IMG/VR virus record: IMGVR_UViG_3300014638_000002
Coordinates: 1-62,941 of that record
From: a virus
Taxonomy: Duplodnaviria > Caudoviricetes
DNA: 62,941 nucleotides
Direction: 5' to 3' (one strand)
Shown here: one piece after another, positions 12,034 through 50,984 of the stretch
Numbering within the stretch: the first letter of the stretch is position 1
Layout of the letters: each line of letters opens with the position of its first letter
Made by a program: the position numbers and the translations under genes
The notes under the pieces: generated by a model
What the model saw: the letters and a program-made list of their open reading frames with translations, nothing else
What the model was told of the DNA's origin: nothing
Database searches by the model: none

Positions 12034-12039
12034 GGGACC

Positions 12040-27682: not shown

Positions 27683-30143
<2,461 letters not shown>

Positions 30144-33626: not shown

Positions 33627-33659
33627 AAAAAAACCGCCGGATTGTTGGTCCGGCGGTTT
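33627..33659 (-). terminator. intrinsic terminator after capsid gene
   Basis: AAACCGCCGGA-loop-TCCGGCGGTTT ending in a T7 run on the minus strand. Confidence 0.85.
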
Positions 33660-36532: not shown

Positions 36533-36541
36533 GTGGCCTCC

Positions 36542-36850
36542 TTACCGCGCGCTGGAGATACCGGATCGCGCAGGAACGGAGCCTTGGAAGCCGAACATCT
36601 TGGTCGTGCCGCCTTCAGCGAACTTCTCGCCGGGGCCGCTCGAGTCGGGCTTGCCGGTCGACGGTGACTTGTCGGAAGCCTTACGGGATCCGGCTTCCTG
36701 TTCACCGAACATCGGCGTGTCGCCACCCTTGGCAAACTCAACGTCATGGGTTTTCTCGGTCGCAGAGCCGGCGTCACCTTTGCCACGCTTTGAACCGGTG
36801 CCCGTGTCGACGTTGCCGCCTTTTGCGCCCTTCTTTTCCCCATCAGCCAT
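36542..36850 (-). CDS. small Gly/Lys-rich protein with two FAxGG.T.MFG repeats
   Basis: CAGGAG RBS; EFAKGGDTPMFG and KFAEGGTTKMFG. Confidence 0.7.
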   Translation of the reverse strand: MADGEKKGAKGGNVDTGTGSKRGKGDAGSATEKTHDVEFAKGGDTPMFGEQEAGSRKASDKSPSTGKPDSSGPGEKFAEGGTTKMFGFQGSVPARSGISSAR

Positions 36851-36878
36851 CGTAAATCTCCTGTGCATGCACAGGGTG

Positions 36879-36910
36879 ATCATGCCGCTAGAAAGTGAAG
36901 GATTACTTAA
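36879..36910 (-). promoter_or_regulatory. CtrA-box-like promoter for head genes
   Basis: TTAA-gtaatcc-TTCAC-N10-CATGAT. Confidence 0.6.
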
Positions 36911-37650
36911 TTCGGTTCACACTGCAATTGCGCGATTTCCTTGAATTTGAAACCGGATTTTAGCAGCCACAGCGGATAAACGCGCTCCATGACGTAGTCC
37001 ATAACCCGTTTCTTGTAGGCTTCATTAGTACTGTCCAGCCCGTTGCAACGCTCATGTAACTCCAACCGCAACGGCTCCATTTCCCACATCATGCGATTGA
37101 ATACCGGCCAATGGGTAATAAAGAGCCAGTGATAGATCCGATTACCGTTGAACCTGTAGAACCCGTGTTTCTGTACCACGTCAAGGAGGGCCGCGGTGTC
37201 ATTGGCAGAACCGGAGGCGCCGAAGTCGCTAATGACATCGGCGCCATAGTCGGCGGCGCTTAAATAGCAGGGCGCGGACTGCAAAATGTCGCAGTGTTCT
37301 AATTGCTGCTTGATTTCGGCGCCGTCCCACGTAGACCAAAATGAGCGGTACGCTTCAAACTCGCCGCGCGATGTTCCCAGCCAATTTGGCGCGTTGTCCT
37401 TGACGCGGCGGGTCGACAAAGGAAACCAGGACGGATCCCACAGATAATAGCGGTAGGCAAAGAAACCGATCATATCAGGAGGGTTACCAAAAGCCCGATA
37501 ATTAAGCCAGGTCCCATAATGGGCGCGCCAACCGGCATAATCCTGGCCCGGATAATCATTCGGCGAATTCGGCCAAACTCGAATGACAGGTCCTCGCGTT
37601 TGATGATCATGGTCGCGATGATCGTGAACCCATATTTCTAGGCGCGCCAT
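36907..37650 (-). CDS. DUF4422-like glycosyltransferase-associated protein
   Basis: IGFFAYRYYL, DIL, FIT.W.VFNR.M, R.MDY.MER.Y.LWL; paralogue of 39581-40303. Confidence 0.6.
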   Translation of the reverse strand: MARLEIWVHDHRDHDHQTRGPVIRVWPNSPNDYPGQDYAGWRAHYGTWLNYRAFGNPPDMIGFFAYRYYLWDPSWFPLSTRRVKDNAPNWLGTSRGEFEAYRSFWSTWDGAEIKQQLEHCDILQSAPCYLSAADYGADVISDFGASGSANDTAALLDVVQKHGFYRFNGNRIYHWLFITHWPVFNRMMWEMEPLRLELHERCNGLDSTNEAYKKRVMDYVMERVYPLWLLKSGFKFKEIAQLQCEPN

Positions 37651-38294
37651 GTGACGTCCGCCGCATCATTCGCATGTTGTTCAACAAATTCCCGGCGTTT
37701 AGTTGGGAAAAACAATTCAGCTATTTCCAATACAGTAAGCTCAGTTCCCTCGAGAATGTCCAAAGTACCGGGCGGCGCATCCGCGGCTTGTATGAATGCC
37801 GCAACCGCGCGCTCGACCGAGGCATAGGTTCTCTTTTGACTGCCGTCACCGGCAATCTTCAAAACGTCGGCCTTCGCAAACGCTTCAATAACACCGCGGC
37901 CGCCGATACCGGTAATATTGCACAACCGCACCAGGCGCGCTCCGTACAAGCTACAATAATGCTCACATGCATGCTTGGAAATCGCATAGGGGGTCACCGG
38001 GTTAGTAGCCGGCCATGCCGCGGCGAACACTACTTTGTCGCGGTAGTGATCCAATATACGCAAGGTGGCACCAATGTTCATGCTCGCGTCTTCTATTGCA
38101 TCTGTGGTTTGTGCCCGCGTTTGAGCCGCCAAATGGAAACACACATCAGCTGGAGGAAGTGGACATAATCGGATATCTTCGTGCCCACCACGCTGCAAAT
38201 CGAGACCAATAACATGATATCCTTCGCCCCGAAGAGCGCGACAAAGATGCTGCCCTATAAACCCAAGATCGCCGGTCACGAGAGCGGTTTTCAT
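37638..38294 (-). CDS. NAD-dependent epimerase/reductase (extended SDR)
   Basis: LVTGDLGFIG, FHLAA, YAISK, GDGSQ.R.Y. Confidence 0.85.
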   Translation of the reverse strand: MKTALVTGDLGFIGQHLCRALRGEGYHVIGLDLQRGGHEDIRLCPLPPADVCFHLAAQTRAQTTDAIEDASMNIGATLRILDHYRDKVVFAAAWPATNPVTPYAISKHACEHYCSLYGARLVRLCNITGIGGRGVIEAFAKADVLKIAGDGSQKRTYASVERAVAAFIQAADAPPGTLDILEGTELTVLEIAELFFPTKRREFVEQHANDAADVTWRA

Positions 38295-38295
38295 A

Positions 38296-38967
38296 TCACA
38301 AATCCCTGTAATCACGCGCGCCGCGGTCATGGACCAGCACGTTGTGCAGATTGCCCTGATACGTGGTCGGCGACGGCCACTCATTCGGCTCGATGGCTCG
38401 GTCTTTCTCCACAACGAACACTTTTAGACCAGCCCGCATAGTCTGTATCGTGAGGCCATTGGGACCATGTTCAAACTCGAGCGGACCCGTCCTGGATTTT
38501 TCTTCCCAGTCGAATTGATCCGCGACCATGAAATAGAATTCCCGGTCAACCAGGAACGCTGTGTCCCGCACATGCAGATTGGCAACGCGGGATCCCGTGC
38601 AGCCGACCAAACCGACACCCGGCTGACTGAATACGTCATAGAGTTTTTTCAGCCAGTCATCGTGCATGATCTCAGACGACGAGTTAAGATGGCATAGGAT
38701 TGGCTCTGTCACATCGGTACGAACTTCTGTGCAGCCGGCCAGCGCTTTGGAGTCCAGATGATTGAATAACTCACTTGGCCGCAAAGCCGCCAGTTCGGTG
38801 CGGGCCCATTTCAAATCATCGGGCGAAGCAAAATTTTTGTACAAAACGTACAACTGCTGATCGATCCCCGCCGGATGGCGCACGTAAGATGCAATGAACC
38901 GTGTTAGGCGTTCCCGCCAATTCGGGTCCAGGCCGCGCGCCGTGTAGACGACACCTATTTGCGGCAT
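38296..38967 (-). CDS. putative glycosyltransferase-like protein
   Basis: F..SY..HPAG, LNS.S....DWL, VGLVG.TGS, H.R.TAF, FE.G...LT; within the glycan cluster. Confidence 0.5.
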   Translation of the reverse strand: MPQIGVVYTARGLDPNWRERLTRFIASYVRHPAGIDQQLYVLYKNFASPDDLKWARTELAALRPSELFNHLDSKALAGCTEVRTDVTEPILCHLNSSSEIMHDDWLKKLYDVFSQPGVGLVGCTGSRVANLHVRDTAFLVDREFYFMVADQFDWEEKSRTGPLEFEHGPNGLTIQTMRAGLKVFVVEKDRAIEPNEWPSPTTYQGNLHNVLVHDRGARDYRDL

Positions 38968-39584
38968 AGGTCTTTCTCCATCATGAACATCGTATGTTCA
39001 TCGATCATCCAGTTCGGTTCGTAGACGCCGGTACCGCGGCTCAAATGTTCCGTGATGGCGCCTTCCGGATAGGACTGTTCCCAGGACCAATAGCGCGGAT
39101 CGTGGGTAGGCAATATGCGGGCAGCGCGCACGACGTTGCCTACCCAGCGGTCCTCATAATCAATACGTGGATCACCAGCGATTACTGCTTCCATCGCGCG
39201 CTTACTCAACCAATAGCCCGAACCACCGCCAATGTGACCTTCACATGGAACTTGGTAACCAGTATAATCGTGTTTCTCATAACCAGATGCCAACAACCGC
39301 GGCACGATGATGTAGCAATCAGTCGGCACGATGAACACATAATCGTGGCCGTGCTCGAGTGCCCATTTCACGCCAAGTCGCGTCTTGAAAGCCCCATTCA
39401 TAAAACCGGTCGGAGAAAGAACACTCAATTCATCGCCCAGCATATCGTCCCAACGCAGACTATCCAGGACAAACATGTGCGGGATCAAATGTCCCCATTC
39501 CTTCAGATAGGTCTCATAAATGGCAGCGTGATCCCCGCGATCTTTTGAACCATGATAAGTCGAAATCAAAATGATCGGGTTCAT
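38955..39584 (-). CDS. GT31/fringe-like glycosyltransferase
   Basis: KT....WA....DYVF...TD.Y, DYTG, GGSGYWLS..AM, ED.WVG. Confidence 0.7.
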   Translation of the reverse strand: MNPIILISTYHGSKDRGDHAAIYETYLKEWGHLIPHMFVLDSLRWDDMLGDELSVLSPTGFMNGAFKTRLGVKWALEHGHDYVFIVPTDCYIIVPRLLASGYEKHDYTGYQVPCEGHIGGGSGYWLSKRAMEAVIAGDPRIDYEDRWVGNVVRAARILPTHDPRYWSWEQSYPEGAITEHLSRGTGVYEPNWMIDEHTMFMMEKDLCRK

Positions 39585-40303
39585 TTTACGTCCCAACATT
39601 GCAACAGGGGAACTTCTACCATGCTTAAGCCGGAACTGTCAAGCCAGAGCGAATACATACGTTCCGAAAGATACGCCATCGGCCGGTGCAGATACGCGGG
39701 ATCCGTCGCGTCCTTCGACTCAATGCCTACCCGGATGGCCTCCGCGAGCGGCCACCACCATTCCATGAATCGATTGAACACCGAGGCCCGCGTAACGAAA
39801 TGCATCGGACGAATGTACGGCCGGGCCACATATGGTCTGACATTAGGCGGCAGCAAGTCCATGAACACATCCCAGTCATGGGAAGATCGGGACCGACGGA
39901 AATCGATCTCCATGTCGAGATTGTACGCGCAGTTGAACGTCGGCGCCACGATGATATCATGTTGGGCCAGGAGCTCTTGAATGTACTGCCCATCATATTT
40001 TGCCAACCATTCTTGGTAGACACGAAAATCACCAATGCCGACCTCGTACCAAGCCGGCACCCGCAGTAGATTTTGGAAATCCAAAAACTTACGATAACCA
40101 TGGAACCCAATAATGTCGAGATCGTCCCGGTTTTTCCAGATCCAATAGGGGGCCCGCATGTCGGCGTATGTTTCAAAAGATGAAATACCAACACCATGTA
40201 GATCGTCATAACCGCAAATAAACTGTTTCGAAATCCCACCAAATATTGGCCGGATGCCTCGTGGACGTACGTGATCAATCGCATAGATCTCAATCTTACG
40301 CAT
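39581..40303 (-). CDS. DUF4422-like glycosyltransferase-associated protein
   Basis: YWIWKN...DIIGF.GYRKFL, HDII, F..F.EWW, R..AYLSER...LWL. Confidence 0.7.
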   Translation of the reverse strand: MRKIEIYAIDHVRPRGIRPIFGGISKQFICGYDDLHGVGISSFETYADMRAPYWIWKNRDDLDIIGFHGYRKFLDFQNLLRVPAWYEVGIGDFRVYQEWLAKYDGQYIQELLAQHDIIVAPTFNCAYNLDMEIDFRRSRSSHDWDVFMDLLPPNVRPYVARPYIRPMHFVTRASVFNRFMEWWWPLAEAIRVGIESKDATDPAYLHRPMAYLSERMYSLWLDSSGLSMVEVPLLQCWDVK

Positions 40304-41322
40304 TAGAAGGGTCTAAGCCATTCCGGGTTACGCTTGTACCATGCCACCGTCTCGCGAAGGGAGTCTTCCAAGGAGACTGGCGGCTTCCAGCCCAAAGAGG
40401 CAAGCTTGCTACCGTCCAGGCCATAATGAGGATCGTGACCCGGCCGGCTTATATCACCGGGCTCTATCTCGTACTTGAGCGGCTTGCCCCAATATTCTGC
40501 TATCAACTCAGCAAACTCGAGATTGGAAATGCAACGCTCCCCGACGACGTTGTAACGGTCTGGACGATCCATAGCACCATCAACATGTATCCGTGGCGGC
40601 GAATATTTCAAAAGATACATGATCGCGTCGGCAGCGTTGCGGGAATGAATATAAAACCGTGATCCGATATCGCCATGGGTGCCGTGGATCTTCACTGGAA
40701 ACCCATCGTTCAAAGCGTTCATCACAATCAGCGGAAACTTGTACGGCGATTGCATTTCGCCAAAGTTGTTCATCAAATTGACGATGATAAGCGGCACATT
40801 GTAAGCCCGCCAATATGAAATCGCAATGTCTTCCTGGGCGGCCTTCGACGCCGCATAGGGACTAGATGGCAGCATTGGGGCCCATTCCGGATGAAACGTA
40901 CGGCCGTCGGTCGCCCCATAGACTTCATCCGAGGATATATGCAGGAACGCGGCCGGCCGCGCAATGCGCGTATGTTCGAGGATGGTGAGCATCGTTGAGA
41001 CGTTCGTATGGATGGTTTGCAGCGGCGCCTTAATGGAGTCAAAGACATCGGTATAGGATGCCATATTGACAATGTAGTCGACGGCGCCTATTTTATTTCG
41101 CAACATATCGGATATGGGCGCCTTCAAATCATGCGTGAACACTTTCAGCCGTGGCAACGTCTCCGGATGCTTATGAGTGACGCGCCAGATGCGATCGGTC
41201 AAACCTTTATGCCGGAACGAGTCAATCGCGATCACGTCCCAGTCGGTGTTCTTGAGAAAATGCCGCACGACATGGCAACCGATCGAACCGCCGGCGCCGG
41301 TGATCAAAATACGTTTTACCAT
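40303..41322 (-). CDS. rmlB: NDP-glucose 4,6-dehydratase (RmlB-like)
   Basis: ITGAGG.IG, V.DSI, SSDEVYG, PSSPYAASKAA, NNFGE.Q...KF, RPGHD..Y.LD. Confidence 0.85.
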   Translation of the reverse strand: MVKRILITGAGGSIGCHVVRHFLKNTDWDVIAIDSFRHKGLTDRIWRVTHKHPETLPRLKVFTHDLKAPISDMLRNKIGAVDYIVNMASYTDVFDSIKAPLQTIHTNVSTMLTILEHTRIARPAAFLHISSDEVYGATDGRTFHPEWAPMLPSSPYAASKAAQEDIAISYWRAYNVPLIIVNLMNNFGEMQSPYKFPLIVMNALNDGFPVKIHGTHGDIGSRFYIHSRNAADAIMYLLKYSPPRIHVDGAMDRPDRYNVVGERCISNLEFAELIAEYWGKPLKYEIEPGDISRPGHDPHYGLDGSKLASLGWKPPVSLEDSLRETVAWYKRNPEWLRPF

Positions 41323-42002
41323 TTGGGTTCATATCCTGTGAACATACGGGGATTGTGATCGGCCTCGTACCAACGCAAGTTAGGGATATTAGTCTGTTCA
41401 ACCAGCGCCAGCATGTTAACCTCGAATGACACCATCTTCATCGTCCGAATGAACGAACGCGTAACCGCTTTGAAAGCTTTTGTCAAGTTGTGAATGTCCC
41501 TTCGGGGCACGATCAAGACGCTGCCGCAGAACCGCCAACACGGGCTGTTGTAGTCGTCGATCTCGCATTTCGGCCAGCAGCCTGGGATCGCGAAATCGTT
41601 CTTCACAATGCGATCTAGAAAAGACGTCAAATAATCTCCGTTCATCCCCGGCAAGTGCATGATGCCGTAGTCGACCCACACAAAGGTATCGGGCTCTTGG
41701 TTAAGATTGGCCGCGGTCGCCAACCATTCGATCTTTTGGTGCTGCACGCAATGGTACTCGAGCGTGTTCTTGGCTGGGTTGTCATAGGTGGCCCATTTTA
41801 ACGGCGGCTCCATCGGCGGCAGTTTCTGCAGGAACTGCGTCAGCCATAAATCCTGAATATCATAATAGAACGCCTGGATAGACCGCACGCCCATAGCGCT
41901 CTTCAGCCGGTTACCGAGTTCGACATATTCCTCGGTCTTGCGCGGATGGTTTGGGATCTCGGTGAACCCGGTAACGACCTGGACTTTGGCTTTCTTGCTC
42001 AT
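41316..42002 (-). CDS. HtrL/YibB (WlaTC)-like glycosyltransferase
   Basis: VVT.F, Y....K..W, FVWVDYGI.H, WRFCG, EVN..A. Confidence 0.65.
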   Translation of the reverse strand: MSKKAKVQVVTGFTEIPNHPRKTEEYVELGNRLKSAMGVRSIQAFYYDIQDLWLTQFLQKLPPMEPPLKWATYDNPAKNTLEYHCVQHQKIEWLATAANLNQEPDTFVWVDYGIMHLPGMNGDYLTSFLDRIVKNDFAIPGCWPKCEIDDYNSPCWRFCGSVLIVPRRDIHNLTKAFKAVTRSFIRTMKMVSFEVNMLALVEQTNIPNLRWYEADHNPRMFTGYEPKW

Positions 42003-44002
42003 TCGCCCAACCACATAATCACGTCATCATCGGTCACGGTAGCTAGGCGCGCCTCGCAATCCTTGAAACCGTACGAGATCACCAAGCGCTTGCCCTCCGG
42101 ATGCCAACACAATCCCATGGCATACTCAATGGTCTTCTCATGGAAGCCGAAAGGTTTGCTGATCTTGACGACGTTGAATTGATCGTCCCATGACACAAAT
42201 CGATGGAGATAATACCTGGTGGGTTGCCCCGGGATCTGGCGGGCCTCGTGGACGATCGCCAGATAGCCCTGATGGAATGGGATCACCTGGGTGCCGCCGC
42301 CTAGGGCGCTAATATCCCATTGACATGGATGTTTAGTATCCGCGCCATGTCCGTCCGTCGTTTCATCAACATGATACATCCAACGGCTGGTCTTATCAAT
42401 AATCGGCATCCAATTCTTTTCACAGGCGAGCGGCGCGTGCGTCAATCGTTTCAAATTGTCCAACGTACCATTAGCCGTAATCTGCACGCAGACCTGTTCC
42501 GGCAAGCCATCTTGCCGCAACTCGCGAACCGTTGCCGAGGCGTATAAGTCGTTACCCATATTGAACAGCCGCATGTCCTCTAAGCCGATGACAAGCGGGT
42601 ATGCCGGCGGCGCAGTCAGGACGTCGCTGCCTTTCAATTCCGACGTGAGCCGCGGCACGATATCGAGCGCACCGTCGAAGCCGACGAGGAAGTTGCGTGT
42701 GTTGATCGGGTTTGTGTTGTTAACAGAACCATCCGCAAGGCCGCGGATAAGATAACGGCCATACTCGTCAATTCTATAGTTAACCGTGCGAACGATCGCC
42801 AAGAGCTCGCCGTCTCGATTGATGACCGATGGGTTGAGTGGGATCCAATTCTCTTCCGGATGGAAATTGATCCCTTTCCATTCAAACGACGGGCAGACCT
42901 CTTTCAACATCGGATAATAATGGAAGATGTTCGTGCGGTTTAGATCGCGCGAGAACGCATATGGGCTCTTTTTCAACGTGAGCTCGTTGCACACGTCGAA
43001 ACCCTTAGCGCGTTTAGTCGGCATGTAAAACGCTGAGACTGCAAATTCATCCTTGACACCGCATTCGTAAACGTAATCATTCACGAACAACGCATCCTTG
43101 GTATGGGGGATTTCCATGCCAGCTTCTGAATACAAAACGGCGAGCGCGTTCTGCCCTTTTTCCCGGTGATATTTGGCGAGCTCGTACAGCGTCTCGGCTC
43201 GATGCGGCCGCATGTTATACGCAATCTGCATATTGAGTATAAAGCCAGCATCGTCGCCAAGCGTCCTGAGGCATTGGGCATAGCTCAATTGAGCGTGCCA
43301 GACCTCTTCATCCCAACCACCGGCATCGACGCGGCGCTTGTACCACTTAGCCGCTTTGTCGACCTTGCCGGCGTCACGATAGGATTGTGCGAGATAATAC
43401 ATATAGCGCACATTGACTGGTAATTTGTCTTTTTTGTCCACTTCCATGGCGGTCTTAAGCAGCTTGATATCGCGCTTGAACTTGTCGGGGCGATTGGCAC
43501 CGTCGGCGTGATCCGTGAAAAATGCTTTCTCGGGCGGGATACAGCCCCCTGTGGGCAGGTTCAAATATTCATGCGTGACACCCATATACATTCCGGTGGT
43601 GTTCGTTCGAGCCAGACGCCGGTTCTGATACTTAAGCGTACCAGACACCTGATACATGTCAAAGCTTTCGTCCTTGACATCATCGAGCCAAGTCGGATCG
43701 TTGACTTTCAACTCCATATCGGCGTCCATCAACAGAATGTACTCCGACTCTTCTGCAAACGCACGAGCCGCTTGTAGTGCGATATTCCGCGCCTGCGAAA
43801 AATCCTTGAATTCGGTTTGACCAATGCGGCCGGGGATCTGGCGTTCTGCGAAGAACTTTGTGATCTTAGTAACCGTGTCGTCGGTGCTACCGGTGTCGAC
43901 GATCACCCAGTAATTGATGTATGGGGCAGCGCTGGCCAGAGCCCGCTCGATGCGCGCGGACTCGTTTTTCACAATCATATTCAAACAGAGCGTCTTAGCC
44001 AT
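41999..44002 (-). CDS. GT2-TPR glycosyltransferase with C-terminal beta-propeller
   Basis: LCLNMIVKNE, VDTGSTD, DF..ARN, DADM, HE, YYLAQSY TPRs; then NPS, GLED.RLF, EKNW, IEY..GL. Confidence 0.85.
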   Translation of the reverse strand: MAKTLCLNMIVKNESARIERALASAAPYINYWVIVDTGSTDDTVTKITKFFAERQIPGRIGQTEFKDFSQARNIALQAARAFAEESEYILLMDADMELKVNDPTWLDDVKDESFDMYQVSGTLKYQNRRLARTNTTGMYMGVTHEYLNLPTGGCIPPEKAFFTDHADGANRPDKFKRDIKLLKTAMEVDKKDKLPVNVRYMYYLAQSYRDAGKVDKAAKWYKRRVDAGGWDEEVWHAQLSYAQCLRTLGDDAGFILNMQIAYNMRPHRAETLYELAKYHREKGQNALAVLYSEAGMEIPHTKDALFVNDYVYECGVKDEFAVSAFYMPTKRAKGFDVCNELTLKKSPYAFSRDLNRTNIFHYYPMLKEVCPSFEWKGINFHPEENWIPLNPSVINRDGELLAIVRTVNYRIDEYGRYLIRGLADGSVNNTNPINTRNFLVGFDGALDIVPRLTSELKGSDVLTAPPAYPLVIGLEDMRLFNMGNDLYASATVRELRQDGLPEQVCVQITANGTLDNLKRLTHAPLACEKNWMPIIDKTSRWMYHVDETTDGHGADTKHPCQWDISALGGGTQVIPFHQGYLAIVHEARQIPGQPTRYYLHRFVSWDDQFNVVKISKPFGFHEKTIEYAMGLCWHPEGKRLVISYGFKDCEARLATVTDDDVIMWLGE

Positions 44003-45231
44003 CAGAAAATCTCCAATTCGGGAATAGCCGTTACGAATTTCCCGCCCCAGGATCGAACCTGCTCGCCGATCCGGCCAGCAATTTCTTTTTTCAAGTTCCA
44101 TGGAAATAGGAGCAAATAGTCTGGTCGATCAGCGAAGATATGGTTTTCATTGAAAATCGGGATTTGCACGCCTGGAATATATTTCCCTTGCTTGTACGGC
44201 GTCGTGTCGACTACGTATGGGAGCAGGCCTGTATCGATGCCACAGTAATTCAACAACACAGTAGCCTTGGCTGGCGCACCATAACCGCCAACGGTTCGCC
44301 CGTCGCGTTTAGCATCGATCAACAAGTCCAACAGGTCACACTTGATCCGCACGATCTCTTTTTGGAACGACATGTACGTGCGCGCATGATCGAACCCAAA
44401 ATACGTTTCTTCCAACAATAGGTCCGAGACAGACTGATCACTAGAACGCAGGTCGTTCCAATGGGAAATGAAAACCCGAAGAGAACCGCCGAGATTTGGC
44501 AGCTTTTCCACACTGAGCACTCGCAAATCGTGCTGCTGCAAGATATCGAGGATAGTATGTAACCAGAAATACGAATAATGCTCGTGGTAGATCGTATCAA
44601 ACTGCAGATCTTTGATTAAATTGAGCAGATGGGGGCACTCGATCGTCGCGGTACCGCCGCGCTTCAACAAAATGCGAATACCTTCAACAAAATCATGGAC
44701 GTTTGGCACATGGGCAAACACATTGTTGGCCACAATAAGATCGGCAGCTTTGCCTCGTTGCACCATGCTTGTTGCAATCGCGGCGCCGAAAAAAGCTACC
44801 TCCGTAGGAATGCCTTTCGCTTGCGCGGCCGCGGCGACATTGGCAGACGGCTCAACCCCATGCGCCGCAAGGCCCAGCTCCTGGAAATACTGCAGCAGAT
44901 ACCCATCGTTGCTGGCGATCTCGACCACCAGCGGGTTCTCCGTGAACGCCAACATTTCAGACATGCGATTGGCGTAGCGCTCGCATTGCGCCAGAAATCC
45001 CTTGGAATTAGATGAAAAATATGCGTAGTGTTCATTGAAAAGCTCTTCGCGTCGAACAACCGCCGGTACCTGCACCAGCCAGCATTTCTCACAGACATAC
45101 GCGCGCAAGGGATAGATCATTTCACCCTGTTCGAGCGATGCGTCAATAAGAAGAGCATTGGATGGCGGTTGACGTCCTAGGTCGGCAAAGGTCACAGATA
45201 ACGGGGCAGAGCAATTTCGGCAAAAATGCAT
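44002..45231 (-). CDS. NDP-sugar C-methyltransferase (NovU/TylC3/TcaB9-like)
   Basis: CR.C...C..C.LVQ Zn site, EIASNDG.LL, NNV.AH, FDTIYHEH.SY, GYGAPAK...LN, KQG.Y.PG. Confidence 0.9.
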   Translation of the reverse strand: MHFCRNCSAPLSVTFADLGRQPPSNALLIDASLEQGEMIYPLRAYVCEKCWLVQVPAVVRREELFNEHYAYFSSNSKGFLAQCERYANRMSEMLAFTENPLVVEIASNDGYLLQYFQELGLAAHGVEPSANVAAAAQAKGIPTEVAFFGAAIATSMVQRGKAADLIVANNVFAHVPNVHDFVEGIRILLKRGGTATIECPHLLNLIKDLQFDTIYHEHYSYFWLHTILDILQQHDLRVLSVEKLPNLGGSLRVFISHWNDLRSSDQSVSDLLLEETYFGFDHARTYMSFQKEIVRIKCDLLDLLIDAKRDGRTVGGYGAPAKATVLLNYCGIDTGLLPYVVDTTPYKQGKYIPGVQIPIFNENHIFADRPDYLLLFPWNLKKEIAGRIGEQVRSWGGKFVTAIPELEIF

Positions 45232-45278
45232 GGGGGCCTCCTGCAGCCCCCATTGCATAGCACTCGGTCAGTGCCCTG

Positions 45279-45521
45279 TCAAGCCGGCGCCGTAAACCCC
45301 GGCACATAAATCGTCGGAAAGCCATTCTTAAATGGGCCAGACCCGGTTGCTCCTGCAATGACTTCAGGAAACTCATTCCTCGGCGCCTTACCAGAAGCTT
45401 GGGCATACTGTTTCCAGTGATTGGCGAAATGCGGCACTGTCGAGACGTTAACCGTCTTGCATCGCGTAACGCGGTCAACCGCGGTATTTGCGATAATCCG
45501 AATTGTCGGAAGCGCGGCCAT
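45279..45521 (-). CDS. hypothetical protein
   Basis: TAATG-coupled to the collagen gene; contains GATG. Confidence 0.55.
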   Translation of the reverse strand: MAALPTIRIIANTAVDRVTRCKTVNVSTVPHFANHWKQYAQASGKAPRNEFPEVIAGATGSGPFKNGFPTIYVPGFTAPA

Positions 45522-46429
45522 TAGCCACCGCCAGGAGTACCGGGCGATACCTGAATGCCTGCAGTAGCGCCCAAGACTGGGTTCCACCATACCGCGCCCG
45601 GGATCTGCGGATCCACAGTTGGCGGGAAGAAGATTGAGTTCTGGATAATACCCATTGGACCGGGCGGCCCGCCAAGCGATGGAATAGCAGCAAGCGCATA
45701 TCCAGATTGTCCTGTCTGGCCGGTATAACCAGAATAACCAAAATTAGCGCCCCCAGTGCCCGGGCCGTACATGTAGCCATATGGGCCCGTAATACCCGTG
45801 CCAGCGCCTACCGGCATCCAATTGTATTGGAGAACACCGGTTGGACCAGTCGGACCAGTCGGACCTGTTGCGGCCGTCGCTCCAGTCGCGCCAGTAGCGG
45901 CTTGCGGACCTGTCGGACCGGTAATACCCGTTCCGCTCGTTGGACCAGTTGCGCCGGGAATGCCGGTCGGTCCTGTCGGGCCCGTTACCCAAAGAGGTCC
46001 CTGCGGACCCGCTACGCCCGTATTACCTGTGGGACCGGTCAAACCTGTCGGACCGCTCGGGCCAGGCAAACCGATTACACCCGTGTAACCGATCGGGCCA
46101 GTCGGACCAGTAATGGAATAACCGCCGGGAGGACCAGCAGGACCTTGCCATACAGACCATCCCGTGAAACCAGTCGTACCTGTGATGCCAGTGGCATAAT
46201 GAAACAGCACGCCGCCGGTCGGACCAGTTGGACCGGTCGTACCTGTACCTGCTATAGCGGGGCCAGTTGGGCCAAGAGGACCAGCAGGGCCAGTCGCCTG
46301 GTTGGCATTGAGAATAGCTGAAATCTCCGCGATGACGATCGACAGCTGATTGTCGTCAATCGTATCTAGTGGCCCAAGCGTGTAGTTGAGCGCGTTGATC
46401 AAGCCGGGTTGTTCTGGGCCAGTTGCCAT
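45521..46429 (-). CDS. collagen-like protein C
   Basis: Interrupted (G-X-T)n; C-terminal PPT.DP...G.VW.N...VS.G. Confidence 0.85.
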
Positions 46430-46432
46430 GTC

Positions 46433-47086
46433 TTACCCCGATGAAACCGTAAGCACGCCGCTATTGCTCCACATCTGTCCTTTGACGTGTGGATCAGATG
46501 TCGGCGGCGTGAACGAATAAAAACTTCTGCCCGTCGGACCTGTCGGTCCAGTCGCGCCAGTCGGCCCCTGTGGACCCTGCGGACCCGCAATCGAGCGCGC
46601 GGCACCAGTAGGGCCAGTCGGTCCTGGAATACCAGTAGGACCAGTTTTGCCCACTGGAACCGGCCCTGCAGGACCTACTCCGGTAGGCCCTGTCGGCCCC
46701 GTGTATGCCGTAGCCCCAGGCAGCGTCAACGGGCTGATACCTGTGAGGCCAGTTGGACCTTGAGGACCAGTCAACCCGGCCGGTGACGTACCAATAATGC
46801 CCACGGTACCAGTGGGACCAGTGACACCTGTCGCACCCATAGGCGCCCAAACCGTCAGCAAGCCAGCGTTCGGATTACTCGCCGGGCCCGTAGGACCGGT
46901 TGTGGTATTTGTGGGGCCAGTAGGTCCTGTAAGATTAGCTAGGCCCGTCGGACCCGTCGGTCCGGTAAAACCGACAGCCGCGCCAGAATTCACATAGTCG
47001 ACCAACCCCTTCAACAGGGGGCTAATCTGATTTGCATCAGCGTTCTTAATGACTGGAAGCGGGCCATCAGGAAACGGATTTGCCAT
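46433..47086 (-). CDS. collagen-like protein B
   Basis: (GPT)n; C-terminal [24 protein letters not shown]. Confidence 0.85.
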
Positions 47087-47087
47087 C

Positions 47088-47777
47088 TTATGTCCCCGGT
47101 CCCTTCGACACGATCAGCGTACCCAACGTGCCGGCCGAACCTGTTGCAGCGCCAGAAAATGGTTGGAACCAAACCTGTCCCGTAACACCTGGACTTGAGG
47201 TCGGTGCGATGAACAAGTCGCCGCCCGTATATCCAGAATAGGGCACGTTCGGCGAAACAAGCGGCGGCAATTCAAGTCCTGTCGGGCCGGTCGGACCAGT
47301 CGGACCAACAAATCCAATGAAGCCAGTTGGGCCCGTAGGACCGGTCGCGCCGGCGGGACCAGTTGGACCCGATGTACCGGCCGCAGGGCCGGTCTGTCCT
47401 GTAGAGGCACCAGTGGGGCCTGTGGCGCCGCTAGGACCGGTGGCGCCCGTCCAATTATAGAAGGGTGCTCCTGTCGGACCAGCGATGCCAGGCGGTCCCT
47501 GTTGGCCCGTGATGCCTGTTGCGCCCGTGGCACCTTGCGGACCTGTTGGACCTTGGAAACCTAATGGACCAGGCGGCGCGGCACCTTGAATTTGTGGGCC
47601 AGCAGGGCCGGTATAACTGAACCCTGCAGGACCGGTCGGGCCGGTCGTTGCTCCCGTCGGACCTGTAGGGCCGACAGACGCGCCCGTTACGCCCGTAGCG
47701 AGCGCAGCTACAACCTGTGAAAGGATAAGGCCGCGCTGACTGTGGTCATAGTTGAAGGAAGAGGTAATTGTCATCAA
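47088..47777 (-). CDS. collagen-like protein A
   Basis: (GPT/GAT)n; C-terminal [13 protein letters not shown]...LIVSKG. Confidence 0.85.
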
Positions 47778-47800
47778 GAAACCCTTGCAAGGTCATTTGA

Positions 47801-47832
47801 ACTCTAATCGCCATCCGTTTTTAATTCCTTAA
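47801..47832 (-). promoter_or_regulatory. CtrA-half-box promoter for collagen/glycosylation genes
   Basis: TTAA-ggaatta-AAAA-N11-TAGAGT. Confidence 0.5.
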
Positions 47833-48601
47833 CCCAAAAGGCGCGGGGGAGGCTGTTCAAAATGGCTGGCGGCAAAATGGATTGCCGCGGGGCGTATTCT
47901 ACTCGTTTTTTCAGGAAATGCAAGCCCGGGGTGCCGATCGACTGATCGAAGAGCTCCGCGCCAGGGATCTGTTCAATAGCGTCAAAAGTATAATCAAATG
48001 CCGGCAGTTCAAGTTTTTCGTGAATTTCGGTCATTAGCTTGTCCGGAAACCGAGCCAGATCGTCATAGTTAATGATCACGAGCCGGTCCCGGTGCGGCCC
48101 ATAATAGGCTTCCTGCACAGCCTGCCACGCATATCCGACAAGGCCTAACGGGTCCATTAGCTGCTTGACGCGCCGAAAAATGGTCGTATTGGGTTCGAGC
48201 CCGATGATCGTGCTCAAAGTCAGCGGATGGGCTTGCAAAAGGCGCTCGATGCTATCGACAACCGCAATCGGATCCCGCACACAGCACAGAACCCATGCAT
48301 CGGGGAACATGCTTCTCACCAACGCCATGTTCGCACACCATCTTCGGTTCGCGTCGAACACGATGTCCGCTTCAATGTCCGCATAGTAGGCGGCGAATAC
48401 AGCCCGCAAACTCCGCACGCGCTGCTCGTCCGAAATGAACCAATGCGCTTCGTTGACGCCGCTCATAGCCCGATGAAGATCGGTCACGCATTGGCCGACT
48501 GGGGATTGAATGTTCGCATAAATGTGAGGATTTTGCCTTAGAATAGCAGCAAGCAGAGTGCTACCACTCCTAGGCAAACCACTAATAAAGTGAACTCGCA
48601 T
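47804..48601 (-). CDS. PAPS-dependent sulfotransferase family protein
   Basis: 5'-PSB loop GLPRSGSTLL, 3'-PB VRDP....DS, YDDL..P. Confidence 0.85.
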   Translation of the reverse strand: MRVHFISGLPRSGSTLLAAILRQNPHIYANIQSPVGQCVTDLHRAMSGVNEAHWFISDEQRVRSLRAVFAAYYADIEADIVFDANRRWCANMALVRSMFPDAWVLCCVRDPIAVVDSIERLLQAHPLTLSTIIGLEPNTTIFRRVKQLMDPLGLVGYAWQAVQEAYYGPHRDRLVIINYDDLARFPDKLMTEIHEKLELPAFDYTFDAIEQIPGAELFDQSIGTPGLHFLKKRVEYAPRQSILPPAILNSLPRAFWVKELKTDGD

Positions 48602-48632
48602 GGGGTCCAATACGGGTCAGCGTCCAGATACA

Positions 48633-50984
48633 TTAACCCACTCCAGCGCTAATCGGCTTCGCACCGGCCCCTGGAGTGTTGCCGGCGGTATTGGCCACCG
48701 TAGGCCCTAAACCGCCCGCTGTCAAGGGCCCAGGCTGGTTACCTTGTGATGCCGCTGCTCGCGCTGCCATCGGGCCACCCGGTCGCGGAGGACCGGGCAG
48801 GGGCGGCCCGCCGGGGCCTGCAGGGGCGCCGCCAGGCGCTCCCATACCCGGTGAGGCGGCCGGCGTCCCAATATGCGTCGGCATGCCCTCAGGCATTCCG
48901 GCACGAGTAGCAAGGATACCAGCAGTGAGTTCGGTAGCGATCCGCTGTACGCCCATCTTGACACCGCTCTGCACGCCCTGCTCAACATGCTGTTGGAGCG
49001 CTTGTTGCTGCGGATTGGCCTGTTGCGCTTTCGCCTGCGCGTCCATCTGGTCCAAAACTTCATCGGGCGGAACGATTTGTTCGCCAGATAATCCCAAATT
49101 AGAACTCGTAGCACGTAGCACAACGCCACGACCTTTAATACCCATAATATGCATGTCAGTAGGATTATTAGTAGCTTGTAACCACTCGATTTGGCGTTGA
49201 CGCATCGTCTCTTTTTGGATGGCAACCTGAACACCTTGGACACTGATCTTCTCCTCGCCGGTAAGCAGACCCGTCGTGTCGGTCAGCATGATCAGGTCAG
49301 CAAGCTGGAGAAGAGCCGGCTCCATAATTTCACGATCGATGTTCGCGGAAACTGTCTGCAAGATCTTCGAAGCATTGCCCATCAACATAGCTAGGCCAGA
49401 AGCTGTCCGTCCCGCTCCACCAGCACCCGCCTGGCCACCAACGTATTTCGGGATAGCCGAAATGTCGTCCGCCATGGAGATAAACTGTTGGTACGCCGCC
49501 ACTAGCGCTTGTGTATTGCTCGTAGGCATGAAGAAATCCACCGGCGGCCGCGCGTTGTTCCCCACCGGATCGTTCCGGGTGTGCCATCGTTTCCATGGAT
49601 AGAGGTCCTCTCCGGTTTCGTCGGGACTCAGGCGATCGTCGTTAACTACGACTTGAGGTCCTGAACTAATGCTCAGGTTATTAACCAAACCCCGAACCGT
49701 GGCGTTCGATACAACTTGTAGATCTTCAAGGATGTCTGTAAGGCCGTTTCCAACCGGCGTGCCCGGCACCTTTTCAAAACTCGTGATGTAGTAAGGAGAA
49801 CGTTGCCGAGGACTGGGGGAAAGCTGACATTTAATAACGTGCGGTCCAATGCACCAGGCCTGGACATGATAATCACGCAGTTCGTCTGGCACAGCCAGAC
49901 CATAATCCTGAAGCATTCGGCCCTGAATGTTACCATTGAAGGCCATCATTGAAATCAGGCGCGATCGGTTCCACGCGGGGTTTTCCTTGTTTTCCAGAAC
50001 AGCTCGTTCGGCATCAGTAGTATCCCAATTGTCATACAGACCGCCACGTCCATATTCATCAAGAACAGCCCGTAGCTCTTGTTGATTATATCCTGGCAGA
50101 TCGAGAAGATCATTGAGTTCGGCTCGAGTGAGTTTGAGTTTTTCGATGATGTCTGCATTGGCTATATCCGATACACCTGGAGTCCACCAGATGTCAAACG
50201 GCGATACGCGCCGCCACATCAACTTGGGTTTTTGCTGGACCGTAGGCTGCCCACCCCCAGGCGGCCAGACGACTTCCGGCATGATCTTGACTTCGGGTCC
50301 ACAGACCACACCGAACGGAAATATGGGCAAATCGACCAGAAACTCAGCGAAAGCTTGATAGAAATTGCCTTCACGTAAGATATCCTCGATCTTGTCGTCT
50401 GAGTCGCGGGCCTGTTGCACGGCCTTCTTTTTGGCGGCGTCAAGCGCGCTCTCAAGTAAGGACGTGCGACGTTGCTGTTCGTCCGTCGGATCCGGCGGTT
50501 TACCCTGCTGCCGGGTAATCATCTGCCGTTCAAGCTGCAGCAGCTGATCTATGTTTTGCTGGATTTCATCCGGGATTTTGGGGGCAGACGGAGGCTTAAC
50601 GGCCCAAGGTCGAGTATCCCCGAGGTAGATGTCCCGAAGCAACGACGAAGCCGCGCGACACTTTTGGGCGATAACACGAGCGTAAACTTCACTTCCACCG
50701 AACCGTCGGATTTCTCGCAGCTGGTTTGCGTCATACTGTCCATTGAAGGTCCTCAGGCAGACCAGCAGGCGCTCCGACCAGCCGGCCGATGTGTTGCGGT
50801 GATTACGAAAAATTTCCCACTGGCCCTTAATATAGGCGGCTAATTGCTGGGGATCTTGCGCCGGCGGCTGTTGGGCCTGGACCTGCATTTTGGCGCGGTC
50901 GGCCTCTTGCTGTTGGAGAACGTCCTCCGGGATGACCTGCAAGACGCCTGATTGGCCCAAAGCCATATCACTCATTGTGGACAA
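48633..50984 (-). CDS. portal protein
   Basis: 783 aa, first gene of the late operon; RVSPFD.W..P, G.GL, NN....SGPQ; Gln/Pro-rich tail. Confidence 0.85.
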   Translation of the reverse strand: MSTMSDMALGQSGVLQVIPEDVLQQQEADRAKMQVQAQQPPAQDPQQLAAYIKGQWEIFRNHRNTSAGWSERLLVCLRTFNGQYDANQLREIRRFGGSEVYARVIAQKCRAASSLLRDIYLGDTRPWAVKPPSAPKIPDEIQQNIDQLLQLERQMITRQQGKPPDPTDEQQRRTSLLESALDAAKKKAVQQARDSDDKIEDILREGNFYQAFAEFLVDLPIFPFGVVCGPEVKIMPEVVWPPGGGQPTVQQKPKLMWRRVSPFDIWWTPGVSDIANADIIEKLKLTRAELNDLLDLPGYNQQELRAVLDEYGRGGLYDNWDTTDAERAVLENKENPAWNRSRLISMMAFNGNIQGRMLQDYGLAVPDELRDYHVQAWCIGPHVIKCQLSPSPRQRSPYYITSFEKVPGTPVGNGLTDILEDLQVVSNATVRGLVNNLSISSGPQVVVNDDRLSPDETGEDLYPWKRWHTRNDPVGNNARPPVDFFMPTSNTQALVAAYQQFISMADDISAIPKYVGGQAGAGGAGRTASGLAMLMGNASKILQTVSANIDREIMEPALLQLADLIMLTDTTGLLTGEEKISVQGVQVAIQKETMRQRQIEWLQATNNPTDMHIMGIKGRGVVLRATSSNLGLSGEQIVPPDEVLDQMDAQAKAQQANPQQQALQQHVEQGVQSGVKMGVQRIATELTAGILATRAGMPEGMPTHIGTPAASPGMGAPGGAPAGPGGPPLPGPPRPGGPMAARAAASQGNQPGPLTAGGLGPTVANTAGNTPGAGAKPISAGVG

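Follow-up and report, generated by a model that had tools for sequence, protein, structure and literature searches.

A phage gene island that may encode the glycosylation of its own collagen-like fibres

Background

The cuticle collagen of Riftia provides a precedent for a collagen triple helix that is stabilised by glycosylated Thr at the Y position of its triplets. Among the enzymes acting on collagen-like sequences, SgtA of C. difficile comprises a GT-A domain and four TPRs and is described in PMC7157674 as transferring beta-O-GlcNAc in vitro onto the Thr of GPT collagen-repeat peptides. A related combination of collagen-like genes and glycan enzymes is analysed here in the genome of an uncultured tailed phage. 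The window, i.e. the whole stretch of DNA analysed, corresponds to an entire virus record (62,941 bases) with a completeness rating of 100%. An earlier sequence-only reading had described about 12 kb of same-strand, mostly overlapping or abutting genes between the portal and the head genes, and this organisation was confirmed: 14 abutting or overlapping genes occupy the minus strand at 36907-48610, with the portal gene on one side and the scaffold and capsid genes on the other, forming an accessory stretch of 11.7 kb inside the portal-to-capsid operon. The collagen genes precede soluble sugar-adding and tailoring enzymes and, because of this arrangement, the phage probably sugar-coats its own fibres. 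The favoured reading, to which we assign a probability of roughly 0.55, is that the island enzymes O-glycosylate the collagen-like fibre proteins of the phage in the cytoplasm.

Results and Discussion

Island borders and transcription

The backbone features that border the island are as follows.

48633-50984, minus strand: portal gene, the upstream border, sharing 54% identity with the portal annotated in Rhizobium phage RHph_TM3_14A
35858-36883, minus strand: small conserved backbone ORFs separating the island from the scaffold gene, with homologues in relatives with and without the island
34754-35839, minus strand: scaffold-like gene
33702-34712, minus strand: major capsid gene (PF25209), 67.7% identical to the RHph_TM3_14A capsid protein
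33631-33659, minus strand: strong terminator ending the unit after the capsid gene (11-bp stem and T-run)

The SU10_portal family (PF23899) matches the portal at 26 bits, under its cut-off of 30. RHph_TM3_14A, the nearest named phage, has about 0.7 kb between portal and scaffold and matched none of the 14 island genes, so the island is considered accessory. The stretch from the portal to the capsid gene, including the island, appears to form one late transcription unit, since its genes adjoin or run into one another and there is no excess of terminator-like sites ahead of the capsid-gene terminator (18 from portal to capsid gene vs 18.4 in shuffled sequences). The island would thus be expressed late in infection, alongside the portal and capsid genes.

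The collagen-like proteins

All genes of the island and the two collagen-like genes of the tail module lie on the minus strand.

47088-47777, minus strand: collagen-like A, 229 aa, PF01391 36.3 bits, 12 GPT triplets
46433-47086, minus strand: collagen-like B, 217 aa, PF01391 29.0 bits, 15 GPT triplets
45521-46429, minus strand: collagen-like C, 302 aa, PF01391 31.6 bits, 13 GPT triplets
45279-45521, minus strand: 80-aa ORF, its ATG overlapping the collagen C stop
27711-30143, minus strand: tail-module collagen-like gene, 810 aa, 34 GPT
30558-31313, minus strand: tail-module collagen-like gene, 251 aa, 10 GPT

The three Thr-rich collagen-like genes proposed for the island are thus real, all exceeding the Pfam Collagen (PF01391) cut-off of 27.2 bits, as are the two further GPT collagens proposed for the tail module, which may be additional substrates for glycosylation. 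Counted over runs of at least four triplets, Thr occupies about half of the Y positions in the island collagens (15/29, 17/28 and 19/35 triplets in A, B and C, respectively). Their collagen tracts contain many interruptions, with no uninterrupted run exceeding 13 triplets, and each protein carries 5-10 charged residues, with 5 in collagen A. With so few charges, such short runs and Thr in about half of the Y positions, the helix would plausibly need extra stabilisation. A C-terminal cap is common to collagens A, B and C and their relatives, in which the N-terminal helix of collagen B also recurs along with its cap. The 810-aa tail-module collagen has an N-terminal adaptor that resembles a small gene from the virion module of RHph_TM3_14A. 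The 80-aa ORF gave no match in family searches and has homologues of 43-57% identity in three related portal loci or locus pairs (L084, L088, L004/L089).

It had also been suggested that the collagens build a hairy coat on the capsid. Nothing connects them with the capsid; in other phages, collagen genes adjoining GH130-like genes are of the tail-fibre type.

The fusion enzyme

41999-44002, minus strand: fusion enzyme, 667 aa, a conserved core gene with a GT-A (GT2) domain, a TPR array and a GH130/GT108-like five-bladed propeller

The fusion enzyme likely starts at ATG 44002, overlapping the stop of the methyltransferase gene, and its homologues begin aligning at residues 30-38 of a longer 700-aa reading. 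PF00535 was matched at 2.9e-08 and the TPR matches were weak. The AF2 model is confident (pLDDT 94.1, pTM 0.90), and its N-terminal half finds its best Foldseek matches in the peptide glycosyltransferases SunS/ThuS, at E 2.8e-15 with a TM of up to 0.68 to the target. This fold and the SgtA-type architecture agree with the earlier suggestion that the GT2-TPR enzyme modifies proteins. They also bear on the idea that the transferases glycosylate hypermodified bases of the phage DNA, as DNA-modifying phage glycosyltransferases are known (cited in PMC12619734). That idea appears most improbable: a SunS-like architecture bearing TPRs indicates a peptide substrate, the island lies within a late structural operon, and a search for base-hypermodification genes in 10 other, non-structural ORFs, five of which had no match at all, revealed no thymidylate-synthase-like or hydroxymethylase family.

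For the C-terminal half, the matches are mannoside enzymes of the GH130/GT108 kind (E 3e-10 to 1e-7), among them GH130 phosphorylases and the GDP-Man-dependent Leishmania enzyme MTP-2. The Pfam GH130 search gave no match for the propeller segment of the window and weak matches in 19 of the 41 members of the propeller family. Elsewhere, the propeller is fused to GT17 and GT2, to GT2, to an FkbM methyltransferase and a radical SAM domain, or to TPRs, and these partners in other phages mark it as a glycan-active enzyme. In L004, the closest full-length relative, several frameshifts break the propeller part, reflecting either an assembly error or dispensability. Phosphorylases are reversible enzymes able to build glycans. 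It is nevertheless conceivable, at very long odds, that the propeller is catabolic, attacking a host mannoside as a GH130-type phosphorylase or hydrolase in an auxiliary metabolic or depolymerase role. The fold matches to GH130 phosphorylases (E about 1e-10 to 1e-8) point that way, as does the annotation of stand-alone cyanophage homologues as mannosylglucose phosphorylase under 'mannan degradation' in PMC12801897; its location in a biosynthetic gene set, its fusion with glycosyltransferases and methyltransferases in several phages and the fold shared with the transferase MTP-2 argue against it.

Other transferases and sugar-tailoring genes

The remaining enzymes and candidate enzymes of the island are listed below.

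47804-48601, minus strand: sulfotransferase, variable, 265 aa from ATG 48601, PF13469 1.5e-15
44002-45258, minus strand: NDP-sugar 3-C-methyltransferase, variable, PF08421, PF13489 and PF08484
41316-42002, minus strand: GT-A-fold protein, 228 aa, a core gene conserved in most relatives, with homologues in 18 loci
40303-41322, minus strand: dTDP-glucose 4,6-dehydratase-like (RmlB-like) SDR, variable, PF16363/PF01370
39581-40303, minus strand: DUF4422 protein of glycosyltransferase type, variable, PF14393 66.5 bits
38955-39599, minus strand: 214-aa ORF, homologue of 64% identity in L004
38296-38967, minus strand: 223-aa ORF, homologue of 65% identity in L004
37638-38291, minus strand: short SDR, 217 aa from ATG 38291, PF01370 1.8e-15
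36907-37650, minus strand: distant DUF4422 paralogue, 247 aa, 32% identical to the L004 DUF4422 homologue

The GT-A-fold protein belongs to no Pfam (even at E<=5), PHROG or NCBIfam family, leaving its earlier label 'HtrL-like' without sequence support. Its AF2 model (pLDDT 93.0) has a GT-A fold, and Foldseek returned the capsid-glycosylating glycosyltransferase 2p73 of PBCV-1 (1.2e-05, TM 0.47-0.59), followed by GT6 enzymes. The DUF4422 protein at 39581-40303 weakly matches WbbM 6u4b (1.1e-05). A second DUF4422-like gene had been proposed at 36907-37650, for which the identity to the L004 homologue provides weak support, while PF14393 (14 bits, E 0.047) stays below its cut-off of 25. ORFs 38955-39599 and 38296-38967 gave no match in Pfam, PHROG or NCBIfam. 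The proposed GT31-like nature of 38955-39599 is a possible lead, as its nearest ESM Atlas clusters are viral, with 26-49% of their proteins bearing PF01762 (score 0.98); the nearest Atlas clusters of 38296-38967 are unnamed viral proteins, and no assignable family supports its description as glycosyltransferase-like.

The 3-C-methyltransferase has full-length PDB matches to 5t64 (1.6e-68), 4rv9 and TcaB9 3ndi. The dehydratase, which is missing from L004, matches PDB 6bi4 (6.1e-38) and TIGR01181 at 1.2e-54, yet scores 185.6 bits there, where the cut-off is 365. The short SDR, with weak NCBIfam matches and homologues in L099 and L113, is possibly a sugar ketoreductase or epimerase. The sulfotransferase ORF opens at TTG 48610; the gene occurs in seven loci of the portal clade, including the L004/L089 pair on one contig, and its weak PDB matches are protein-tyrosine sulfotransferases (0.03-0.16) and a PKS sulfotransferase domain.

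None of the ten island enzymes has a membrane-type hydrophobic segment, the maximum KD19 being 1.39 as compared with 1.76-2.50 in three ORFs that probably encode membrane proteins, and family searches found no flippase, polymerase or lipid-priming transferase. These results weigh against the enzymes remodelling a host envelope glycan (LPS, EPS or capsule) for superinfection exclusion or release, with the collagens as unrelated fibres. Solubility in itself fits such a role too, since O-antigen synthesis on lipid carriers at the inner membrane face also involves soluble GT-A enzymes. The sulfotransferase has a weak likeness, far under the cut-off, to the Nod-factor enzyme NoeE (5.4e-08), and the wall-teichoic-acid enzymes RmlT and TarS are among the Foldseek matches of the fusion model at low TM (0.2-0.3). 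Envelope remodelling is also the usual interpretation of phage glycosyltransferase and sugar-nucleotide genes in PMC7029224 and PMC10202952. It is considered unlikely here, as the best fold matches are peptide glycosyltransferases with TPR substrate-binding domains, expression would be late, with the portal and capsid genes, and the linkage to collagen genes is conserved.

Conservation of the island among relatives

The fusion enzyme is present in 25 of 80 related portal loci, and collagen genes lie directly upstream of it in all 25. Among loci with the entire portal-to-scaffold interval, 13 hold an island of 4.7-8.9 kb, and the 29 without collagens also lack the fusion enzyme. Another 11 portal loci with collagens end less than 4 kb past the portal. 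The islands preserve the order collagen(s), fusion enzyme, GT-A protein, and the smallest consist of these alone, the sulfotransferase, methyltransferases, dehydratase and DUF4422 genes being variable. The co-occurrence may derive from one acquisition inherited jointly, and the 25 loci are therefore not 25 independent events.

For stand-alone propeller genes outside the clade, 24 of 77 loci have a collagen ORF on the same strand and no more than 3 kb upstream, as against 37 of 446 for other ORFs of at least 250 aa in the same loci (odds ratio 5.0; both counts non-dereplicated); dereplication gives 17 of 40 clusters. Synechococcus phage DSL-LC02 is a cultured example. Upstream-adjacent collagens were not significantly richer in Thr at Y than the remaining collagens of their loci (medians about 0.28 vs 0.11, Mann-Whitney p 0.20). 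The expectation that collagens and enzymes are gained and lost together holds in the direction from enzyme to collagen within the clade; the reverse link is weak, as a single one of the 80 viral loci that contain a (GPT)4 tract has a GH130-like propeller gene (stretches averaging about 9 kb).

The enzymes could instead have their glycosylation targets elsewhere in the virion (capsid, tail or tail-module fibres), with the island collagens as mere neighbours. The location in the head operon and the two further GPT collagens of the tail module would suit this, as would the 38 of 77 propeller loci with no collagen ORF within the available stretch. A GT2-TPR homologue of 41% identity in Tunturiibacter phage Tunturi_5 is likewise neighboured by four paralogues without collagen repeats, and mycobacteriophages are reported to encode glycosylation of capsid and tail-tube C-termini (Freeman et al. 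2023, as cited in PMC12619734). We regard this as doubtful, considering the invariable position of collagens immediately ahead of the enzyme throughout the clade, the minimal islands that hold little else, and the activity of the biochemically defined GT-A-plus-TPR enzyme SgtA on GPT collagen repeats (PMC7157674).

Conclusion

Under the favoured reading of self-glycosylated fibres, the small, nearly uncharged, Thr-rich collagens would be modified by soluble enzymes ahead of virion assembly or in its course. Within the fusion enzyme, the TPR array would grip the collagen chain while the GT-A domain, by analogy with SgtA acting on BclA3, attaches the first sugar to Thr (or Ser) in the G-P-T repeats; the propeller and the neighbouring GT-A-fold protein would lengthen the glycan, with more sugars from the two DUF4422-type and one possible GT31-like transferases. 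The dehydratase, the 3-C-methyltransferase and the short SDR could convert host dTDP-glucose into a C-methyl-branched 6-deoxyhexose donor, and the sulfotransferase may add sulfate to the glycan or to tyrosine. Literature searches found no description of such a module. C. difficile SgtA shares with the N-terminal half of the fusion enzyme the combination of a GT-A domain and TPRs, a likeness of architecture.

Gene order and transcription of the island

The window corresponds to the record of an uncultured virus, complete at 62,941 bases. Among named phages, four Rhizobium phages from the RHph_TM3_14A group come closest to it in their capsid (67.7% identical) and portal (54% identical) proteins; it is solely from these nearest named relatives that a rhizobial host may be deduced. 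Gene order in combination with family searches confirmed the gene set, the position between the portal and the head genes and the common strand that had been read from the nucleotide sequence.

Genes of the island and its portal border (coordinates, strand, description)
48633-50984, minus, portal gene, upstream border of the island
47804-48601, minus, sulfotransferase
47088-47777, minus, collagen-like protein A (Pfam Collagen)
46433-47086, minus, collagen-like protein B (Pfam Collagen)
45521-46429, minus, collagen-like protein C (Pfam Collagen)
45279-45521, minus, 80-aa ORF
44002-45258, minus, sugar 3-C-methyltransferase (PF08421, PF13489 and PF08484)
41999-44002, minus, 667-aa GT2-TPR-propeller fusion enzyme (PF00535, model)
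41316-42002, minus, 228-aa protein with a GT-A fold in the model
40303-41322, minus, RmlB-like dehydratase (predicted)
39581-40303, minus, DUF4422 protein (PF14393)
38955-39599, minus, ORF assigned to no family, with a GT31-like lead
38296-38967, minus, ORF assigned to no family
37638-38291, minus, short SDR
36907-37650, minus, distant DUF4422 paralogue (PF14393 below cut-off)

The island genes overlap or abut and are followed by small backbone ORFs, a scaffold-like gene and the capsid gene. Terminator-like sites between the portal and the capsid gene number 18, against a shuffle mean of 18.4, and a terminator with an 11-bp stem lies directly 3' of the capsid gene (33631-33659). Since the genes abut and terminators are not enriched until the one behind the capsid gene, the island is most simply regarded as a part of the late head operon. 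CtrA-type boxes (TTAA-N7-TTAA) are absent from the island, with three present in the whole window.

Four small Gly/Lys/Pro-rich ORFs (35858-36883) occupy the gap between the island and the scaffold gene and are kept in both island-bearing and island-free relatives. Directly past the capsid-gene terminator lies an endonuclease VII-like ORF (32872-33504; PHROG 2914, 1.4e-24) that has no counterpart in RHph_TM3_14A. At the very end of the record (62692-62939) a 15-bp unit is repeated 16.5 times with 86% matches; a terminal repeat, one related to packaging or the edge of an assembly may account for it.

Collagen-like proteins

The collagen-like proteins A, B and C all score above the Pfam Collagen threshold, with Thr at the Y position in 15/29, 17/28 and 19/35 cases, respectively, and Pro at about half of the X positions. 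They carry 5-10 charged residues per protein, their longest unbroken run is 13 triplets, and they have in common a short helix at the N-terminus and a cap at the C-terminus, both of which recur in the collagens of related phages. The two further GPT-rich collagen genes claimed earlier for the tail module were also found.

A 66-bp tandem duplication (29153-29307; 2.3 copies, 93% matches) within the gene for an 810-aa tail collagen (27711-30143) suggests a recent expansion of the collagen tract. A 97-aa ORF (30144-30437) is a duplicate of the N-terminal adaptor domain of the same tail collagen, and this ORF and the adaptor both match one small gene of RHph_TM3_14A.

The fusion enzyme

The fusion enzyme was modelled with AlphaFold2 from 57 sequences (pLDDT 94.1, pTM 0.90). 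Its GT-A domain is recognised by PF00535 (2.9e-08, residues 42-134 of a 700-aa reading), by the GT-A fold in the model and by a D-A-D motif in the sequence, which is of the acidic D-x-D type seen in GT-A domains like that of the C. difficile enzyme SgtA. Right behind it the model places a TPR array of helical repeats (residues 174-362) that is matched in Foldseek by the GT-A and TPR part of SunS and by designed TPR proteins, the matches to TPR_14, TPR_16 and TPR_12 being below the Pfam cut-offs. The best Foldseek matches in the PDB are the SunS/ThuS glycocin peptide glycosyltransferases (7msn, 7msp and 7msk; E 2.8e-15, TM to target at most 0.68). As this fold match is strong but the score against NCBIfam SunS (TIGR04195) is 26.1 bits for a cut-off of 350, the enzyme appears to work like SunS without being a member of that family. 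There is no glycocin precursor gene near the fusion gene, the neighbours being collagens, a methyltransferase and a GT-A protein. Of 8,000 scored candidates, 5,734 are homologues at E<=1e-5, and many of these lie on contigs of 60-70 kb. When the GT-A-TPR half (residues 1-372), with an alignment of its own, was predicted in complex with collagen B, the score was 0.00, which is evidence neither way.

The C-terminal third is matched in Foldseek by GH130 mannoside phosphorylases and by the GDP-Man-dependent Leishmania MTP-2 (E 3e-10 to 1e-7), and its five-bladed beta-propeller is recognised in 1vkd, 4udk, 7fip, 9gph and 6q4z (TM to target 0.5-0.65). The propeller of the window has no PF04041 match at E<=1, and 19 of the 41 aligned family members match Pfam GH130 weakly (best 4e-06). 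Two motifs, G-L-E-D-x-R and C-E-K-N-W-M-P, are invariant in the family; the former aligns weakly (profile E 0.15 and 0.72) with G-(V/L)-E-D-P-R of two GH130 enzymes, and the Asp of E-D-x-R would be the catalytic acid. Most members of the C-E-K-N-W-M-P subfamily are viral: over 596 loci were confirmed in viral contigs, compared with 32 in one genome from each of 185,579 species, many of the 32 being MAG contigs. The chromosomal copies of this subfamily (in the set of loci L007-L083 and L284-L315) form a cluster in Ferrovum-like Betaproteobacteria, and no collagen lies close to them.

In other phages the propeller occurs as a stand-alone protein (~320-335 aa) or is fused to GT17 and GT2, to GT2, to an FkbM methyltransferase and radical SAM, or to TPR, and because of these partners it is considered to be an enzyme of glycan chemistry and not a chaperone. 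A catabolic role of the GH130 kind would agree with the annotation of cyanophage copies as mannan-degrading enzymes in one report (PMC12801897); we regard such a role as highly improbable for this propeller. GH130-like propellers are also described in giant viruses, with no collagen link in the available portion of that account (2026 preprint).

Other enzymes of the island

The sugar methyltransferase combines the Zn-binding N-domain (PF08421), the SAM domain (PF13489) and the C-domain (PF08484) of 3-C-methyltransferases of the TylC3/TcaB9/KijD1 type and matches 5t64 (1.6e-68), 4rv9 (2e-67) and 3ndi (5.1e-65) over residues 8-417. The product of 40303-41322 is similar over its full length to solved RmlB enzymes (6.1e-38) and scores 185.6 bits against RmlB TIGR01181, below the equivalog cut-off of 365.1; it is predicted to be a divergent NDP-hexose dehydratase. 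DUF4422 (PF14393) is matched by 39581-40303 with 66.5 bits for a gathering threshold of 25, and 36907-37650 stays below that threshold with 14 bits.

The 228-aa protein adopts a GT-A fold in its model (pLDDT 93.0), and its nearest structures are those of PBCV-1 A64R (2p6w, 2p72 and 2p73; E 1.2e-05, TM ~0.5, identity 13-16%), with GT6 enzymes scoring almost as high. The sequence-only reading had labelled this protein HtrL-like and the ORF at 38955-39599 GT31-like. The first label found no Pfam match at E<=5, the GT-A fold alone being supported, and the second no Pfam Galactosyl_T or Fringe match at E<=5; Atlas neighbours of the latter ORF carry PF01762 on 26-49% of their members, which serves as a lead only. 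For the sulfotransferase, weak PDB matches were obtained to protein-tyrosine sulfotransferases (0.03-0.16) and to a PKS sulfotransferase domain (0.0033), the NoeE match being far below the cut-off; either the glycan or tyrosine may be the target of the enzyme.

Distribution of the island among related phages

RHph_TM3_14A has the same backbone order, with three tiny ORFs only between portal and scaffold, and none of the 14 island genes is matched there. A megablast search with the island as query gave no match in 50,697 phage records. Among 80 related portal loci from viral contigs, the fusion enzyme was identified in 25, and in all 25 collagen genes lie directly upstream, so that the arrangement of the window, in which three GPT-rich collagen genes precede the enzyme in the same operon, is kept. 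A further 11 loci have collagens and end less than 4 kb past the portal, 29 contain the whole interval with neither collagens nor enzyme, and 15 were too short to score. Portal identity is ~62-91% for island-bearing and ~45-63% for island-free loci, and the distribution of the island in the clade could be explained by one acquisition.

The island is accessory to the backbone and keeps a core of genes around which its content varies. The smallest islands hold a pair of collagens, the fusion enzyme and, after these, either the 228-aa protein (as in locus L006) or a methyltransferase (as in locus L092). Additional genes in other islands are for a lectin-like protein, a phosphoesterase, the dehydratase, DUF4422 or class I methyltransferases, the last making up 4 of the 10 largest cargo ORFs without an assignment. 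A dehydratase is missing from the closest full relative (L004/L089, capsid 96%), whose island has the sulfotransferase, a set of three collagens, the small ORF and the C-methyltransferase.

In L004 (IMG/VR, 70.3 kb) the fusion gene (10001-12130) shows several frameshifts in its GH130-like part, the GT2-TPR part being intact; either an assembly error or decay of the propeller would account for these. The portal-to-scaffold slot of island-free relatives holds 4-6 kb of other cargo (L131, 8352-13917; L151, 10916-15134; L157, 2233-8191), in which 0/10 ORFs match a PHROG family of known function, and the slot has the look of an accessory-gene hot spot.

Collagen linkage outside the clade

Outside the clade, the propeller gene was considered in 77 viral loci (not dereplicated), where it stands alone or has other fusion partners. 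Within the stretch examined, a collagen-like ORF of at least 8 triplets is present in 39 of the 77 and no collagen in 38. A same-strand collagen ends at most 3 kb upstream of 24/77 propeller genes as against 37/446 other ORFs of at least 250 aa from these same loci (odds ratio 5.0), and at most 300 bp upstream of 9/77 as against 13/446, both comparisons being made on loci that were not dereplicated; on clustering at 70% identity, 17 of 40 propeller clusters have an upstream collagen. Several propeller-linked collagens presumably end in tail-fibre-type chaperone domains. In the reverse direction, the propeller gene accompanies 1 of the 80 viral (GPT)4 stretches listed (at least 120 matches; short stretches), and GPT collagens thus mostly occur without a propeller, as far as such short stretches can tell. 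A GT2-TPR homologue is also present in Tunturi_5, where the four paralogues next to it contain no collagen repeats. These results, like the Thr contents given below, speak against a strict link. A reading in which the enzymes glycosylate virion proteins other than the collagens is judged unlikely.

Thr enrichment in the propeller-adjacent collagens was striking per locus, but once the loci were dereplicated to 40 clusters the difference from other collagens did not reach significance (p 0.20). In the cultured Synechococcus phage DSL-LC02 (locus L317; OR032571, 44755-51199), a 'collagen-like protein' that is Pro-free and Thr-rich, with Thr at Y in 51/116, is encoded beside a GH130-like 'beta-mannosyltransferase' and two FkbM methyltransferases, the set being flanked by tail-fibre genes. 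In nine otherwise unrelated viral loci out of the 77 (L008, L009, L032, L037, L042, L043, L048, L051 and L072), a homologue of the sulfotransferase (22-28% identity) is encoded near the stand-alone GH130-like gene.

Proposed mechanism and its alternatives

By analogy with known systems, the phage enzymes probably glycosylate the phage's own collagen-like fibres, a reading to which we assign a probability of roughly 55%. Membrane-type segments are absent from all ten island enzymes (their 19-residue Kyte-Doolittle means peak at 1.39, against 1.76-2.50 in three likely membrane ORFs of the window), and the island has no flippase, polymerase or lipid-priming transferase, which favours cytoplasmic O-glycosylation of the collagen chains; O-glycosylation is further favoured by the N-terminal half of the fusion enzyme, which shares the SgtA architecture and sits beside GPT collagens. 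Remodelling of host envelope glycans is a rival reading. A membrane-embedded flippase with transferases of the GtrABC type is absent from the island, and such remodelling is considered about as unlikely as the modification of other virion proteins. Glycosylation of DNA is the least supported of the four rivals and very remote, because no base-modification family was found among the 10 other ORFs scanned.

In the glycosylation of collagen fibres, the GT-A-TPR part would prime the collagen chains, and the propeller together with the 228-aa GT-A protein would extend the glycan, further sugars being possibly added in this phage by the DUF4422-type and perhaps the GT31-like proteins. The donor could be derived from host dTDP-glucose by the dehydratase, the 3-C-methyltransferase and the short SDR. 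The earlier glyco-collagen interpretation is thus supported in part, the capsid coat that it included being suggested by gene position alone.

A wider and more tentative reading, credible though held with less confidence, is that many environmental phages run cytoplasmic O-glycosylation of collagen-like fibres around a mostly virus-specific propeller transferase, which is joined here in a fusion to an SgtA/SunS-like priming part, and that in this clade the glycan, methyl-branched and sulfated, stabilises a marginal triple helix in place of hydroxyproline or charge pairs. The module appears to be widespread. If the proposal is true, a phage module with its own collagen substrates and a priming-and-extending enzyme would link virion glycosylation to the GPT collagens of spores, and glycoproteins on virions would be a common feature of phages from soil and water rather than a mycobacteriophage curiosity. 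It could explain how triple helices that are free of hydroxyproline and poor in charge are stabilised, and would give a function to a large viral GH130-like family whose present annotation is 'mannan degradation'. The system bears on phage adsorption, stability and antigenicity, and is compact enough to be tested with one collagen and one enzyme in E. coli.

Comparison with known systems

Glycosylated GPT collagens occur on bacterial spores. In BclA of Bacillus anthracis the GPT repeats carry O-linked deoxysugar oligosaccharides, with a dedicated deoxysugar pathway nearby; this is a bacterial spore nap and not a virion. PBCV-1 A64R resembles the 228-aa protein as a virus-encoded GT-A enzyme that acts on a virion protein; it belongs to a eukaryotic virus and the glycan is an atypical N-linked one. 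GH130 and GT108 enzymes have the same fold as the propeller, whereas the mostly viral subfamily of the latter has its own invariant C-E-K-N-W-M-P motif.

To our knowledge, self-encoded glycosylation of virion proteins in tailed phages is documented for some mycobacteriophages only, and no description linking phage collagen-like fibres to a dedicated glycosylation enzyme was found in the literature searched, supplementary gene tables lying outside the search. In the mycobacteriophage case (Freeman et al. 2023, as cited in PMC12619734), phage-encoded transferases likewise decorate the phage's own virion proteins, the glycans reportedly being on the C-termini of capsid and tail-tube subunits; unlike the present case, no collagen-like substrate figures in that account.

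SunS and ThuS, which are S-/O-glycosyltransferases of glycocins, share the GT-A and TPR fold and glycosylate a peptide substrate, but are without a propeller. The closest parallel in architecture is SgtA, which consists of a GT-A domain and four TPRs in 358 aa, is encoded alongside its substrate BclA3, and puts beta-O-GlcNAc on Thr of GPT collagen-repeat peptides in vitro (PMC7157674). Compared by architecture as published there, both systems have a GT-A domain followed by TPRs and a gene beside that of a GPT-rich collagen-like protein, whereas SgtA is a bacterial spore enzyme without a propeller and the phage encodes a 667-aa enzyme fused to a GH130-like domain, and the phage collagens, as distinct from BclA3, are small and soluble with their own end caps. 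By these analogies, the phage module would work like the SgtA-BclA3 pair and like peptide glycosylation of the SunS type.
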